Source of the DNA: an uncultured delta proteobacterium
GTDB taxonomy: Bacteria; Myxococcota_A; Polyangia; Polyangiales; Polyangiaceae
Assembly (NCBI GenBank): GCA_963782055.1
Contig: CAWAIF010000003.1
Span: 4,864,001 to 4,928,000, forward strand
Direction of reading: 5' to 3'
DNA length: 64,000 nucleotides
Shown here: positions 42,313 through 51,357 of the stretch, one piece after another
Position numbering within the stretch: position 1 is the stretch's first letter
Layout of the letters: the number at the start of each line of letters is the position of its first letter
The notes under the pieces: generated by a model
Told to the model about the DNA's origin: nothing
What the model saw: only the letters and a program-made list of their open reading frames with translations
Databases searched by the model: none
Made by a program: the position numbers and the translations under genes

Positions 42313-43092
42313 TCACTTCTTCGGCTTCTTCGCCAGGCTGGCGGGGCACTCGACGGCGGCGACGGTGTAGTCGTCGGAGGTCGCGGGGATGATGTGGGTG
42401 GGGTGGGGGCCGGCGGTCTTCGGGCAGTAGGTGAAGTCCACCTCCGCCGAGGCGGGCGGCGTCGCCAGCTTGTCGCCGAAGGGGGTCTTCATCTCCAGCG
42501 TGAGGGTGTTGCCCGCGCCGGCGCTGATCGCCAGCACCCGCACGCAGCGGCCGTTGAGGACGAACTTGGTGTCCAGGGTCTGCTCGCCGGAGGTGGTCTG
42601 CGGCGGCATGAGCACGTCCTTGCATCCCTTCACGTAGAGCTCCTTGAGACGCGCCGTCATGCGCGCCTCGCCCAGCGCGCCGACCTCGCTCGCCCTGGCG
42701 GCCTTCGCCTCCTCGACGGCCTTCGACGTGGCCGCGGGGCCGCCTCCCCGCGTCTTCGGCGCGGCGGCGGCGGCGGCGGTGGTGGGGGCCGGCGCGGCGA
42801 GGTAGACGACCGCCAGCACCGCGCCGGTGATGAGCAGCGGCACCGCGATGACCAGCACCACCAGGATGCCCATCGCCCGGCTCGCGGATCGCCGCGTGGT
42901 CTCGGCGGTCTCCAGGGCGAGCTCGCGGGACTCGCGCTCCAGGCGCTCCCGGCGCTGCTCGGCGCGCGCCTCCAGGATCTCCGGCGGCAGCGTGGTCTCC
43001 TCGCCGCAGAACTCGCACCGCGCGACCACCGCGTCGACGTCGTCGGGCACCGCGAGCGCCGCACCGCAGCTATGGCAAACGAAGCCGTCCAT
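42313..43092 (-). CDS. Zinc-ribbon + TM hypothetical protein
   Basis: CHSCGA...CEFCG, coiled segment, TM helix, extracytoplasmic Cys-containing domain. Confidence 0.7.
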   Translation of the reverse strand: MDGFVCHSCGAALAVPDDVDAVVARCEFCGEETTLPPEILEARAEQRRERLERESRELALETAETTRRSASRAMGILVVLVIAVPLLITGAVLAVVYLAAPAPTTAAAAAAPKTRGGGPAATSKAVEEAKAARASEVGALGEARMTARLKELYVKGCKDVLMPPQTTSGEQTLDTKFVLNGRCVRVLAISAGAGNTLTLEMKTPFGDKLATPPASAEVDFTYCPKTAGPHPTHIIPATSDDYTVAAVECPASLAKKPKK

Positions 43093-43214: not shown

Positions 43215-43744
43215 CTACTTCTGGCAGATCGCCTCGCATCCCGCGGTGCCGTTGCGCTCGACGCAGAAGCAATCGTACGCCCCCGCGGGCTGGCCGCAGG
43301 ACCACCGCAGGGCGCAGAAGCCAGTGTCCTTTCCCTTCGGCACGCCACAGAAGGAGAGGCCGCGACCGTCGCCGACCACGTACTGCGTGGCCCACGCGTC
43401 GCAGAAGGCGTCGCCGGAGGGGCCGGCGTTGCACGCCGGCGGACCGAGCACGTCCCCCACGCAGAAGTACGGCGGCGGCTGGAACTTGATGCCGCACGCC
43501 GCGGTCGCCATGCCGGCGGGCTCAGTGGTCCGTATCCACTGATCGCACACCGGATCCTCGGTCCCGGCCTCGGCCGTGCAGCTCGGTCCAGGGTACCGAG
43601 CGTCCACGCTCGCGTCGTAGTCGACGCACCCCCACCCGGCGTCATGGATCGCGGCCAGATCACCGCCCTGGGCAGGGTCGATCACCTTGCCGTTGCTGCA
43701 CGCCGTGAGCGCCAGCGGGACGAGGACCACGGGGCTCGCGTCAC
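43215..43744 (-). CDS. Small 14-Cys lipoprotein, copy 2 (probable 1-nt deletion near start)
   Basis: Lipobox LTAC; paralog of 44400-44948. Coupled GTG at 43744 is one base short of frame; in-frame GTG at 43730. Confidence 0.65.
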
Positions 43745-44380
43745 GGATTGGTGATGGTAGCAGCCTGGCCGGTGCCGAGCTGGTTGTGGCTCTTGTCATA
43801 GGCCGTGTACACGGGGAACACGTCGAGGGTCGTGTTCTGCGACGCGCACACCGTGAGCGGAGCGGCGGCCATCTCGTTGTAGTTGCCCAGCCGGTAGTAC
43901 GACCCGCCTGTCGAGAGCTGGAACACCGGCTGGAGGCGCAGGGACTGCCCCCCGGTGCCAGGCTCCCACGTGTTCGCCGTGACGCTGCGCGGATCGCGCG
44001 AGTCGTTCATGGTGACCTCGACTCGCTGGTCGTGCGCATCGGACTCATAGCGGACACGCCGTCTGCCCGGGCGCCATCGCCACGCCGCCGCACGGGCCCG
44101 CGCCGGCCGCGTCGCAGAGCGTCCACGGGATCGTCGTCGTCGGGGAGGGGTTGTCGATGAAGCCCCAGCCCATCGGCGAACCGTTGCTGTTGTTGAAGGC
44201 CGCCAGCAGGCGCCCGTTCTGGAACACCGTCGAGAAGGTGTTCTGGCTGGGGCTCATGGGATCCAGCCTGCCCACGTGGCCGCTCGCGGACGCGACCGAG
44301 CCGACCGGCTCGTGACGGGAGCAGCCCAGCCACGCCGCGAAGAGGAGCAGCGAGAACGCGACATTTCCCCGAAAAACCAT
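43741..44380 (-). pseudogene. Internally deleted/frameshifted BNR-like secreted lipoprotein, copy 2
   Basis: AAGGAGG + ATG 44380, lipobox WLGC; frame stops at 44045; another frame from about 44055 (VRYESD...RLGNYNEM...DVFPVYT) aligns with the C-terminus of 44959-45892. Confidence 0.6.
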
Positions 44381-44399
44381 GAGCACACCCTCCTTCATT

Positions 44400-44948
44400 T
44401 CACTGACACGGAGACTCGCAGGTCCAGCCGGCGTCGCGAGCCACACACAGCTGCCAGTCAGCGCAGTTCGAGAACTGACCATTGCACTCCCCTTGCGCCA
44501 CGAGCCGGCACTCCGAAAAAACGTTAGCCTCGCATCGGGCAACAAAGGAAGCGCTACCACGAATGAACTGTCTGAAGAACTCATGGCAGTAGGCATCGCC
44601 CTGCGGACCTGGGATGCAGGCTGAGGGCGGAAGAAATGCCACGCAGTTGCTAGCATTGGGATCGTCCGAGGGGGCGCACGCAACAAACAGCGGCTCTGGG
44701 GCGGAGAGCGTCTTCCGACACTCCTGGTCTATCGCCGGCACGCCCGCGTCGCCGCATGCTGCGGGCGTGATCGGCGCGTGGAAATCGCCACAGGCCACCC
44801 CGTTGGGGGCGGTCAACGGTGCCAGAGCGTCCACGTCGCCGCCCGCGGTCAGGCCGTGCCAGCCGTCATCGACGGTGCCACCGCAAAACGCCGCCGTGGC
44901 GCCACAGGTTAGCGACAGCACGCCGAGGAGGAAGCGCCGGAGATGCAT
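44400..44948 (-). CDS. Small 14-Cys lipoprotein, copy 1
   Basis: Signal peptide with AAFC; C..GP.GDA.C and CV.R....CE.PCQ shared with copy 2. Confidence 0.7.
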   Translation of the reverse strand: MHLRRFLLGVLSLTCGATAAFCGGTVDDGWHGLTAGGDVDALAPLTAPNGVACGDFHAPITPAACGDAGVPAIDQECRKTLSAPEPLFVACAPSDDPNASNCVAFLPPSACIPGPQGDAYCHEFFRQFIRGSASFVARCEANVFSECRLVAQGECNGQFSNCADWQLCVARDAGWTCESPCQ

Positions 44949-44958
44949 CGTGGGCCCC

Positions 44959-45892
44959 TCAGTTTGGGTCCACCCGGAGGTTCTGCGACTTCACCTGCGA
45001 GAGCGGCCCGCCGGTGATCGTCACCTGTCCCGTCCACATCGGCCGGAAATCGGCCGTGGCCGGGCAGGTCGAGCTGTCGCCCGACTGGCTGGCGATCATC
45101 GACTGATAGTCGCCCAGGCCACGCTGTCCCTGGCAAGTCGGCCCACCGCCGGTGGGGACGGAATCGAAGAAGCCCAGCGCCGGCTCTATCTGGTCGGGGC
45201 CCTGCCATGGCAATTCCACCGTTCCGAGGATCGAGCGGGCACGGAAGCGGACGGTATACTGGACATCGTTTTGGTCGGTCTCGTAGTAGAGAACACCGAC
45301 AGCGCTCTTGGTTGCCGCGACCGTCGGGAAGAAGAGTGCGGCACCCCCAGAGTCAGGGAGGAAGGCGGCCACGCTACAGACGCCGGTCGTGTATTGCTGC
45401 GTGTCGCCGCAGAACTCGCTCCAGTGACTGCCGAGGTCCACGCTGCGAAAGAAACGGATGGACGAGAGCGTGTCGGCGATCGCAGCGTAGTACGTACCAT
45501 TGGGCGCGCGAGCAAAGCCGAAGTTCCTGAAGGACGTGTCCAGCTGCGACATCGCGCACCAGGAGAAGTTGTTGCTGTGGTAGATGTAGGCGTTGGGTGT
45601 CCAGCTATCACCGCCGTCGAAGGACGTCACGGTGCCCCAACCCGCCGAGACCGTGCTCGTCGGGCAGCAGGGGTCGTCGGAGCGGTTGAGGTACACGACG
45701 GACACGGCGCCGCCACCGGCCTGCGCCAGGAACCCTCCCTGACCTCCCACGAACCCCGGACCTTCGTCATCGCTGCACGCCGCAAGGCCGCCGAGCCCCA
45801 CGGCTAGCGCCGCGAGAGCCGCCCGGGCGCGGAAACGACCGCGAAGCTCACCCCTGCCTGCCTGCCTGCCTGCCTGCCTGCGCGAAGATCAT
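44959..45892 (-). CDS. Asp-box (BNR)/sialidase-like secreted lipoprotein, copy 1; out of frame at (CAGG)7 tract
   Basis: Asp boxes SFDGGDSW and SVDLGSHW; lipobox LAAC; AGGAGG 8 nt before ATG 45892, which is in frame only with 6 or 9 repeat units. Confidence 0.65.
45853..45880. repeat. Tetranucleotide simple sequence repeat (CCTG)7 / (CAGG)7
   Basis: Seven perfect CCTG units read directly. Confidence 0.95.
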
Positions 45893-49086: not shown

Positions 49087-49260
49087 GGGGTCTCCAGCGC
49101 CGCGGGGTTGCACCGGGCGCGTGGCCCCCATTGTGCCACGGAAGAGCCAGCACCGCACGGCACGCCGCCGCGGAAAGCAGCGCCCTCGACGCGCGCGTGG
49201 TGCCGTATCCCCGTCGGAACAGAGCTTGCGTGAGGCGGCCGGTTGGCGGATTCTGACCTC

Positions 49261-50295
49261 ATGCATTCCCGGCTTCGTCTGGCCCTCGCCGCCGGTGCCC
49301 TGAGCGCCAGCGCGCTGCTCTGGGCTGCGTGCGGACTGGACGCGTCGGGGCTACTCGGGGTCGACGCCGGGCAGCCCGACGGCACGGTGGAAGCGGGACC
49401 GGATGGCCCGGATCTGGACGCCGAGCTGGACGTCGCCGTGGACACCTACGTCCCGCCGCCCTGCTCGACGCTGGATGCCTCGTGCCTGCCGCCCTACGAC
49501 CAGGACGCGTGGGTGCCCATCGCCCTGGCGGCGAAACCGAACAACCCCTGCCCCGACCCGCCCGACGGCAGCGACGCGGGCTTCAACACGCTCGATTACA
49601 TCGCCAACCCGAAGGCGCAGGCCGGCGCGTGCTTGTGCGGCTGCACCAACGCGGGCTCGCCCAACTGCGGCGGAAACGTGACCGTGGCGACCTCCGACGC
49701 CGGCAACTGCTCCAACGCGGCCACGACGACGATGGCGGCCAACGCCGGCTGCGTCGCCTTCGGCATCCCGGCCGACCCCGACGCCGGGCTGGACGGGGGA
49801 GGCAGCGTGAAGGTCACCGCGCCGCCCATGGATGGCGTCACCTGCAACACCAGCCGCACCGGCGACGCGGGCTGGACTGCCACGCGTGTGCGCGCGTGCG
49901 AGCCGGCCTCCTGCGACACCGATTTCTGCGGGTTGAAGGGCTACACGCTCTGCATCGCCCACCTGGACCCGACCGACGGCGGCTGCCCGAGCGGCTTCAA
50001 GCCGCACGCGGCGTACGGCGCGGGAGCCGGCGTGAATTGCCCCAACTGCGCTGGCTGCACCCTGACCAACGCCAAGTGCAGCGGCGCGCTCGTCGGCTCC
50101 GACATGAGCGACTGCTCGGGCAACCCCGACTTCACCGCCCCCGGCAACGGGGTCACGTGCACCCCCTTCTCCGGGGCGACGCAGGCGGTGTACTGGGACG
50201 CTGGCCCCTTGCCGAGCGTCGGGTGCGACATGAACGCCCAGTCCCTCGGCCTGGCGAAGCTCGCGGGCACCTTTACAGTGTGCTGTCAGCCTTGA
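49261..50295 (+). CDS. Cys-rich lipoprotein (paralog A)
   Basis: Lipobox WAAC-GLD, DAG repeats, C-terminal FTVCCQP. Confidence 0.75.
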   Translation: MHSRLRLALAAGALSASALLWAACGLDASGLLGVDAGQPDGTVEAGPDGPDLDAELDVAVDTYVPPPCSTLDASCLPPYDQDAWVPIALAAKPNNPCPDPPDGSDAGFNTLDYIANPKAQAGACLCGCTNAGSPNCGGNVTVATSDAGNCSNAATTTMAANAGCVAFGIPADPDAGLDGGGSVKVTAPPMDGVTCNTSRTGDAGWTATRVRACEPASCDTDFCGLKGYTLCIAHLDPTDGGCPSGFKPHAAYGAGAGVNCPNCAGCTLTNAKCSGALVGSDMSDCSGNPDFTAPGNGVTCTPFSGATQAVYWDAGPLPSVGCDMNAQSLGLAKLAGTFTVCCQP

Positions 50296-50355
50296 CCTGC
50301 GGCCCTGGTCGCGAGATGCCTTGACCCTGAAGATGATTTCTCACGGAGGCCGGTG

Positions 50356-51357
50356 ATGCACAGGTGGCGATTGGCGGTGGCGGTGGGGGTCCTGTCCGTG
50401 GGGGCAGCGGCCATCGTGGCGTGCGGGCTGGACCAGAACGGCCTGCTGAGTGACGCGGGCGGCATCGACGGCGGCCAGGACGTCGTCACCCAGGACGTCG
50501 TGCTCGACGTGGTCGTGGACGTGCCCACGCCGCCCCCGTGCGGGGATGGCGGGCCGTCTTGCAAGACCACGGCCGTCGGCCGCGACCCGGGGCTCTTCGC
50601 GCTGGACCAGAAGACCGCCTGCCCCCCCGGCTTCAACACGCAGGATCTCGTCATGAACCCCACGGCGCACGACAAGTGCACCTGCCAGTGCGACGATGGC
50701 GGCGCGCCCTCGTGCGATCCGAGCACCGTCGCGATGCACGTCAGCGACGCGGGCGGGTGCACCGGAACCTTCGACCTCACCGCCGACGCGGGGGATGGCG
50801 GCGCGTGCGGGGCCACGAGCGTCAACCTCCCGGACAACGGCTCGGTCAGCTTCGACAAGCCCGCGATGGTGGGCGGCTGCAGCGGCGGCAAGGGCGTCCC
50901 CTCCTCGACGAAGGTCGACGGGACCCCCGCCCGCCTCTGCATTCCGGCCGACTGCACCGAGGCCGTATGCCAGCAGCAGGCCGGCTTCAAGAACTGCCAG
51001 TACCTGCAGGGCAACGTCCTCACCTGCCCGGACGGCTACGACGGCGGCTTCTACCAGGCGATCGTCCCCTCCGGCACGCAGGTGACATGCGAGGGCTGCT
51101 CGTGCAGCGCGAGCGGCGACTGCAACGGCGCCCAGGTCAGCCTCTACAACGACGGCACCTGCCAGGCCGGCGCGGTCAACTTCGGCGCCGACGGCAAGTG
51201 CCACGACATCGACACCGCCCACTCCGGCGCGTTCGGCAGCGTGTCCACCTCGGTCAAGGCGCCGACCAATGTGGCGTGCACGCCGTCCAACGCCACGCCC
51301 GAGGCGGGCGTCGCCTACCCGCAGAACGCCGTCTTCACCGTCTGCTGCAAGCCCTGA
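50356..51357 (+). CDS. Cys-rich lipoprotein (paralog B)
   Basis: GGAGG RBS, lipobox IVAC-GLD, C-terminal FTVCCKP. Confidence 0.75.
   Translation: MHRWRLAVAVGVLSVGAAAIVACGLDQNGLLSDAGGIDGGQDVVTQDVVLDVVVDVPTPPPCGDGGPSCKTTAVGRDPGLFALDQKTACPPGFNTQDLVMNPTAHDKCTCQCDDGGAPSCDPSTVAMHVSDAGGCTGTFDLTADAGDGGACGATSVNLPDNGSVSFDKPAMVGGCSGGKGVPSSTKVDGTPARLCIPADCTEAVCQQQAGFKNCQYLQGNVLTCPDGYDGGFYQAIVPSGTQVTCEGCSCSASGDCNGAQVSLYNDGTCQAGAVNFGADGKCHDIDTAHSGAFGSVSTSVKAPTNVACTPSNATPEAGVAYPQNAVFTVCCKP

Follow-up and report, generated by a model that had tools for sequence, protein, structure and literature searches.

Introduction

GH33 sialidases are six-bladed propellers with an RIP/FRIP motif and an Arg triad accompanied by a Tyr/Glu pair, and Tle effectors lack a signal peptide and are delivered through a type VI secretion system (T6SS). 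The catalytic centre of the PL42 enzyme FoRham1 is given as Arg/His/Tyr in the available part of its description (PMC8377490). SitAI loci combine a polymorphic, multi-copy lipoprotein with a downstream operon partner and look mobile, as far as the accessible text goes (PMC8546572), and at the contingency loci of Haemophilus surface-related genes contain non-triplet simple sequence repeats (SSRs) early in the coding region, on its 5' side, where a change in repeat length alters the reading frame (PMC2651432, PMC11868660; both in the parts available). Here we present a two-gene module, consisting of a lipoprotein with a predicted propeller fold (A) and a disulfide-rich lipoprotein (B), which occurs as the series A1-B1-A2-B2 in a 64-kb stretch of DNA from an uncultured delta proteobacterium (the window; G000:C3:4864001-4928000, G000 being the source genome; window positions are used for local features). 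In layout the module is like Tle/Tli or SitAI and in control like the Haemophilus contingency loci; it lacks the defining traits of GH33, SitA and Tle. The reading we prefer, tentatively and at a probability of about 0.45, is that A is a phase-variable exported enzyme and B its cognate inhibitor or immunity lipoprotein. Two unnamed protein families are now tied by a firm genetic partnership.

With the Tle/Tli pairs of T6SS, in the part of the source available, A-B shares the layout of a tandem pair with a lipoprotein partner downstream (PMC9860674). A differs in having its own signal peptide and lipobox and no phospholipase domain; B is unrelated to Tli and disulfide-rich, and the pair is repeat-controlled. 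As a lipoprotein propeller and not a phospholipase, A was not assigned to the Tle-type effectors. Like SitAI, again by the accessible text, the module places a lipoprotein in a tight operon with its partner and is polymorphic and multi-copy (PMC8546572). SitA comprises an N-terminal escort domain and a polymorphic C-terminal nuclease whose target lies in the cytoplasm, whereas A is predicted to be one propeller throughout and B, too, is a lipoprotein; with one propeller and no nuclease family in Pfam or NCBIfam, A was rejected as a SitA. Transfer of SitAI toxins depends on TraAB; the TraA profile TIGR04566 was not matched in G000, and the control likewise went unmatched. As in Haemophilus-type SSR loci, the gene of an exported protein has a non-triplet repeat in its 5' coding region, and near-identical copies differ in repeat length, which changes the frame (L078/L079; window/L001; L005/L006). 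The host, unlike that of the Haemophilus loci, is free-living, at least six repeat units are in use, and the putative exported enzymes have a cognate partner gene. Neither the A nor the B family, nor repeat switches in myxobacteria, were found described in the literature searched, most subscription journals lying outside that search, and a paper on phase variation in M. xanthus makes no mention of repeats or slippage (PMC3986340).

Linkage of A and B

Linkage was counted for those A genes whose 3' end could be read and beyond which sequence was available, the ones cut by a contig end being left out; in the wide genome searches five candidates were scored per genome, so that misses are possible. 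B lies directly downstream of A in 25/30 A genes (L078 and L079 being near duplicates). Of the five others, four occupy the second A position in an A-B-A triplet, and the fifth is cut off on the upstream side. The linkage is seen across several families of the order. One A can precede an array of two to four diverged B genes, the long type of B being found in A-B-A(-B) clusters and the short type in A-B-B arrays with as many as four B genes. A 4-base stop-start overlap joins A to B in 14 of 22 junctions, and all junctions fall within 31 bases. Similarity among A proteins covaries with that among B proteins (Mantel r 0.35, p 0.0005, 22 pairs, the pairs being non-independent), and the reciprocal nearest A-B pairs agree (L008-L034, L007-L036, L085-L086). 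The preliminary description of the window had proposed a polymorphic pairing of variable copy number; the linkage, the arrays and the co-travelling pairs bear this out, and B is found on its own as well. Six genomes (G003, G004 and four of genus g127) gave a B match but none to A, and 18 further B-match loci include two with an A remnant, several cut by a contig end and one that is not a true B.

The same arrangement would fit the main alternative, which we consider less likely, namely that a single surface structure is built from A and B as co-subunits, A being a propeller that binds glycans or serves as a receptor and B a subunit with an accessory, specificity or stabilising role, with the whole operon turned OFF to hide the structure from phages, grazers or competitors. 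Tight coupling would switch B together with A, the A-B-A triplets and A-B-B arrays suit stoichiometric complexes, and some A genes lack a downstream B; the retention of B where A is deleted or absent argues the other way.

The A loci of G000 number 14, of which four are open from the start, two are put out of frame by poly-C tracts, and eight are broken by a deletion, a frameshift or a 1.5-kb insertion; 15 of the 18 B genes of the same genome appear intact. A is distributed patchily, being found in 2/6 other genomes of the genus, 2/300 of the family, 13/300 of the order, 8/32 of family f22 and 1/300 of the class sample. The patchiness within the genus, together with many divergent alleles per genome and co-inherited pairs, would also be expected if A and B were a linked receptor-ligand pair for kin recognition. 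We regard this as improbable, since the majority of copies are broken or OFF, signs of positive selection are lacking, and protease members of the same layout (see below) do not suit a recognition pair.

Two A-B-B copies (G000:C3:3737230 and 6183557) are 99% identical, and each is followed by an 85-aa open reading frame (ORF) that we take to be four-helix-bundle-like; an ORF that is presumably a transposase (6178011) precedes one of them.

Features of the A family

Members of the A family are mostly lipoproteins of 500-570 aa and form 79 clusters at 50% identity. The AlphaFold2 model of a full-length member, made with 69 sequences, has a predicted local distance difference test score (pLDDT) of 89 and a predicted template modelling score (pTM) of 0.90. 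From its strand list the fold is predicted to consist of seven four-stranded blades with velcro closure, a single propeller spanning model residues 28-500. At least one Asp box occurs in 45 of the 54 A sequences of at least 430 aa.

Top ranks in Foldseek went to PL42 and GH145 enzymes and to sialidases, at 8-13% identity; matches to PL42 FoRham1 (7esn), GH145 (5mum, 5mul) and PL24/PL25 had E values of 4e-9 to 7e-8 and template modelling (TM) scores of 0.43-0.47. Enzymes of these families act on glycans that contain uronate or rhamnose, with a catalytic His and a neutralising Arg. They are, like the predicted A, seven-bladed BNR propellers with Asp boxes; unlike the PL42/GH145 comparison set, A is a lipoprotein with conserved Cys that always lies near a B gene. 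In a wide structure search CylK and WD40 proteins matched A with Z scores equal to or better than those of PL42/GH145 (CylK: Z 28.9, root-mean-square deviation (rmsd) 3.3, 339 residues aligned), and lectins were found as well, among them the seven-bladed BP39L (Z 24.8) and CV39L (Z 23.0), which speak for the co-subunit alternative. Because the matches span enzymes, CylK, WD40 proteins and lectins, the function of A is not given by its fold alone.

The conserved polar residues of A are D172 (59/75 sequences), R192-H193 (62/79 and 48/79), D261, R314 (73/82), D333 and D454-Y455 (Y455 in 65/81). As read from the strand list, they would sit at blade starts, strand ends and B-C loops that share one side of the propeller, an arrangement suggestive of an active site that binds anions. 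Such a set looks catalytic, which would count against a co-subunit role. The conserved Arg, His and Tyr recall the centre of FoRham1 as described in the available part of the source (PMC8377490), although residue equivalence is not established at 10-13% identity.

With GH33 and the uncharacterised BNR proteins of the sialidase family, A shares language-model proximity, its nearest clusters being 'sialidase family / exo-alpha-sialidase' BNR proteins (0.92), and weak Pfam profile matches (BNR 24 and BNR_2 15 among 69 A sequences). The A profile gave weak sialidase matches among solved structures (best E 0.005), and PL42, GH145, PL24 and PL25 entries were absent from the 16 profile matches to solved structures. 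The family had no NCBIfam match. Although Asp boxes are present, A was rejected as a GH33 sialidase on account of its seven predicted blades, the best structural matches being seven-bladed too, and the occurrence of the RIP motif in only 1/82 sequences. The A residues considered for the Arg triad and the Tyr/Glu pair of GH33 were R192, R314, R450 (40/81), Y455 and E46 (28/69). The Tli3 immunity profile was weakly matched by 10/69 A sequences (best E 1.4e-5).

More remote A-like propeller lipoproteins with different downstream lipoproteins are encoded at G000:C3:84k, 1440k and 6170k (L030-L032).

Features of the B family

The preliminary description recognised no named family for B, and indeed no Pfam, NCBIfam or PADLOC family was matched. 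A search with a single B sequence recovered only B1 and its paralog, and one with a 15-row alignment found four proteins; 35 members align on a common Cys scaffold. Two subtypes can be distinguished, a short one with about 12 Cys and a long one, including B1 and B2, in which a helix-hairpin unit is duplicated. The model of B1 (pLDDT 75, the best of five, the others reaching 53-61) predicts two helix + hairpin repeats and a terminal hairpin. Foldseek gave no match to the B model at E 0.001, which does not establish a new fold, and the best Atlas value of 0.77 is a lead only. Ten diverged B pairs have ratios of nonsynonymous to synonymous substitution (dN/dS) of 0.11-0.48, indicating purifying selection, which fits the co-subunit alternative as well.

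The best structural match of the B repeat was the defensin-like ligand SP11 (6kyw_D), a weak one (Z 3.8, rmsd 3.3, 46 residues aligned) that falls under the level which the tool deems meaningful; SP11/SCR defensin-like proteins are marked by a disulfide-tied helix and hairpin with the Cys spacing of their family. The match is one point for the alternative that the active agent is B, as an effector or ligand of a defensin-like, disulfide-rich kind, with A as the partner for its folding, display or immunity. B is the multiplied and more variable gene, and the Tli3 matches would suit an A that confers immunity. We nonetheless hold this to be a long shot: the switch lies on A and never on B, and A is lost while B is kept, which for a toxic B and a protective A would be self-harming.

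Start-proximal repeats

Repeats were counted if they had at least four units of 4-5 bases. In G000 10/11 tetranucleotide and 7/7 pentanucleotide repeats stand no more than about 21 bases past an ATG (together 17/18), against 29% for random positions (binomial p 1e-8); their placement at start codons is thus not chance. Dinucleotide repeats showed no enrichment against the same background (46/209 near start codons) and were set aside. MutS- and MutL-like motifs are present.

Three of the 17 start-proximal repeats front A-family loci, one of them via a short leader frame: (GCAGG)4 at L008:6949 (G000:C2:528948) lies in a leader that, when in frame, would stop at the start codon (ATG) of an intact A, making a switch through translational coupling possible. 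A genes of other genomes carry (GAACA)6 (L078), (GAACA)5 (L079), (GAGCA)15 (G428) and (AGCA)6 (G449). Over 2,795 aligned bases L078 and L079 differ by one mismatch and one repeat unit, which leaves the former OFF (six units) and the latter ON (five). The window copy and the second copy in G000 (L001) have seven and four units, respectively, and L005 and L006 have poly-C tracts of C8 and C10. Start-proximal repeats were found in 6/32 A 5' regions and in 0/35 B genes. From these comparisons A is likely to be switched on and off by repeat slippage past its start codon. Phase-variable loci mostly concern surface structures, according to the part of the review available (PMC11868660), a generalisation that fits the co-subunit alternative too. 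A single mobile leader as the origin of the repeats is unsupported, for the units vary between loci and an exact ATG+(GCAG)4 occurs in only 2/40 relatives; the stricter form of this pattern was found in one GTDB genome.

Three further repeats were observed. In G006, of the same genus, the gene of a propeller-rich exported protein of >800 aa is preceded by an out-of-frame (GCAG)11 (L053 / L041, G006:C4:386k), and in G446:C123 (L145) (GAGCA)4 stands in frame ahead of an unrelated lipoprotein. At G000:C3:2530399 (L007) (GCAC)8 past an ATG puts a gene that we take to be response-regulator-like out of frame, just downstream of an island made up of an S53 protease with its partner and an A-B-B array.

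Repeat-fronted exported proteins in the genome

Repeats of 4-, 5- or 7-base units front 13 other large exported ORFs in G000, of which 2 are ON and 11 OFF. Two A-family tetranucleotide sites, the L008 leader, the response-regulator-like gene and one site of unclear target were left out of this set. The ORFs are located as follows.

G000:C3, repeat-fronted exported ORFs at 1186716, 1310367, 2208778, 2265853, 2268530, 2523240 and 3023336
G000:C3, repeat-fronted exported ORFs (continued) at 4430969, 5965595, 6819429, 6829683, 6855786 and 6865747

A Pfam scan of seven repeat-fronted ORFs gave FGE-sulfatase-like, trypsin, S8 and S53 families, with three left without a family; 5/13 are proteases (three by Pfam, the others by visible homology). 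Under a fixed rule, a small Cys-rich lipoprotein (at least 6 Cys) is the next downstream gene in 9/13 cases, compared with 59/3,105 large ORFs and 20/601 lipoprotein-like ORFs (2-3%) under the same rule and crude gene calling; by eye a downstream lipoprotein is seen in 12/13. The partners vary by family in length and Cys count, one unnamed family being paired with a partner of ~260 aa and 23 Cys, and for four of them a scan gave no Pfam family at a significant level.

Where a protease has a small disulfide-rich neighbour of its own, the simplest reading is that of an enzyme and its inhibitor, and because the A-B layout follows that of the protease-partner pairs, the set supports the enzyme-inhibitor or immunity option for A-B, which the preliminary description had listed. 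That unrelated repeat-fronted proteases have Cys-rich lipoproteins of their own is more simply explained by an inhibitor role than by co-subunits. The protease-partner pairs offer a cheap route to testing the inhibitor idea, and small disulfide-rich proteins that bind propellers and proteases would be of use as scaffolds. The genome holds a set of putatively repeat-switched exported proteins, enzymes among them, with partner genes in a free-living bacterium, and soil bacteria are a gap in the knowledge of phase variation according to the accessible part of a 2025 review (PMC11868660). A wider proposal, speculative but with a substantial chance of being right, is that uncultured Polyangiales-like myxobacteria hold a bet-hedged arsenal of a dozen or more exported hydrolases, namely proteases, the A propellers and several families without a name, each switched stochastically through a start-proximal repeat and each with a disulfide-rich lipoprotein inhibitor specific to its family, and that orphan inhibitors accumulate as armour. 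B would then be a new fold family of inhibitors of bacterial propeller enzymes, and the set a phase-variable effector-immunity class outside T6SS, contact-dependent inhibition (CDI) and SitAI.

Proposed mechanism

In the enzyme-inhibitor reading, A is a predicted seven-bladed propeller lipoprotein that likely acts as an enzyme on a charged glycan of the cell envelope, its gene being turned on or off through slippage of the repeat behind the start codon. Both A and B would be exported along the lipoprotein route. Catalysis is presumed to take place at the top face of the modelled propeller, with the conserved Asp, Arg-His, Arg and Asp-Tyr, and B would bind its own A and keep it in check. ON cells would display an aggressive or costly enzyme, from which B would shield the producer's own envelope. 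After decay of A, B could remain as an orphan, of which B1 of the window may be an example; the window copy would be a spent cassette, with both A genes destroyed and B1 left. The same layout would extend to proteases of the trypsin, S8 and S53 types and to further families of G000.

Several observations weigh against this reading. Where stop and start overlap, B would be poorly made when A is OFF, leaving OFF cells exposed to ON siblings. Two full-length A genes of G000 (L003 and L008) have no downstream B, and positive selection on B was sought in the 10 pairs and not found. Such translational coupling, the A genes without B and the lack of positive selection count against strict toxin-immunity in particular. 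Covariation of A and B was not significant within G000 (r 0.15, p 0.21, 8 pairs), nor there for short-type B only (r 0.09, p 0.31). As to the switch, the majority of A genes lack a repeat; L078 and L079 both carry a later frameshift, so that the ON allele is broken too; and the poly-C tracts of L005 and L006 (8 and 10 bases) could be long-read errors, G000 having 277 homopolymers of at least 8 bases. Since A is three times as long as B, part of the excess of broken A genes reflects target size.

The module in the window

The preliminary description reported the four genes in the order A1-B1-A2-B2; they are real, and every motif quoted from them was found in its place on the minus strand. The features of the module are as follows.

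44959-45892, minus strand: A1 pseudogene, signal peptide and lipobox Cys (45775-45777) joined to the C-terminal half, blades 4-7
45853-45881, minus strand: simple repeat (GCAG)7, 11 bases past the A1 ATG (45892); seven units are out of frame
44400-44948, minus strand: B1, intact 182-aa lipoprotein of the long type with its own Shine-Dalgarno-like site
44045-44380, minus strand: 5' piece of the A2 pseudogene, which keeps the signal peptide, the lipobox and blade 1 (profile 6-96)
43741-44053, minus strand: A2 pseudogene, 3' piece in a different frame, profile about 380-466
43215-43744, minus strand: B2, lipoprotein of the long type whose GTG start overlaps the stop of A2; one base is deleted at about 43725

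B1 and B2 both have 14 Cys downstream of the lipobox Cys, as had been counted (16 and 15 Cys in total), and are related, tblastn against the whole genome aligning 155 aa at 30% identity (E 0.002). For A1 and A2 a direct pairwise alignment does not support the claimed relationship (E 0.41, A1 against the 3' piece of A2); their homology follows instead from the A-family profile, which both match among 94 local frames (A1 E 8e-74; A2 pieces E 6e-7 and 7e-9).

Damage to the module exceeds that first noted, which was that both A genes were disabled and the B genes nearly intact. A1 and A2 are broken and B1 is intact, as claimed, whereas B2 has a 1-bp frameshift. A Shine-Dalgarno-like site precedes the A1 ATG at 45892, and A1 is in frame whenever the number of (GCAG) units is a multiple of 3. 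The repeat lesion that had been described for A1 exists, but was not the whole damage, the N-terminal half of the gene being deleted as well: about 200 codons are missing at about 45772, directly past the lipobox Cys. A1 spans A-profile positions 220-477 of 478 and is predicted to encode only about half a propeller. A contig from a soil-metagenome run (depth about 2) matches A1 identically for 128 bases and then diverges at 45772 into A-family sequence, the next 30 bases, read by hand, being in frame and resembling the family segment upstream of the GQGG motif. Because it diverges exactly at the A1 junction, this one contig indicates a close A1 allele without the deletion.

In A2 about 280 profile positions are missing between the two pieces. 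The base missing from B2 lies in the signal peptide, as judged by a near-identical paralog (G000:C3:1549k; in frame, 172 aa), and its loss puts the GTG start out of frame; it may be a real mutation or an assembly error, which are indistinguishable here. B1 and its paralog have a dN/dS of 0.35. The second copy of the module, at C3:1548k (L001), retains four repeat units and 31 codons of A1 and has a larger A2 deletion, with both B genes in frame. Eight soil-metagenome runs had small shares, the contigs covering scattered pieces that skip the repeat and cannot show expression; those in which an additional base is present at 43725 look like the L001 copy and are hence no proof of an intact window B2 elsewhere. 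The window thus holds a decayed copy of a multi-copy module, in which only B1 is intact.

The assembly of G000 comprises 7.58 Mb in three contigs and is 97% complete; its G+C content is about 72%, that of the A-B module being lower (about 66%). Judged by G+C and by its genes, the bacterium is probably a Polyangiales-like myxobacterium, likely of soil. RCC1-repeat and IgGFc-binding genes lie on one flank of the module, and the gene on the other flank is presumably MgtE-like. Among the matches listed, the flanking genes are about 50 bases apart in G006 and <1 kb apart in G002, from which the 2.7-kb module appears to be an insertion at an otherwise conserved site. Insertion, and the fact that most A copies are broken, would be expected if the module were drifting mobile cargo without a dedicated partnership, its lesions and repeat lengths being largely assembly artefacts, and the single-base lesions do rest on the assembly and not on raw reads. 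This is very improbable and already largely refuted: the linkage persists in several of the order's families, purifying selection acts on B, the repeats sit at start codons, and the principal lesions are deletions that remove hundreds of bases.

Two neighbouring features were observed. Immediately 3' of B2 lies an ORF with a zinc ribbon and a membrane helix (42313-43092, minus strand), for which Pfam matches were weak only; the syntenic site of G006 is too small to hold it. Tandem Cys-rich lipoprotein-like ORFs of 350 and 334 aa without a Pfam match (49243-51357, plus strand) are divergent from the IgGFc-binding gene.

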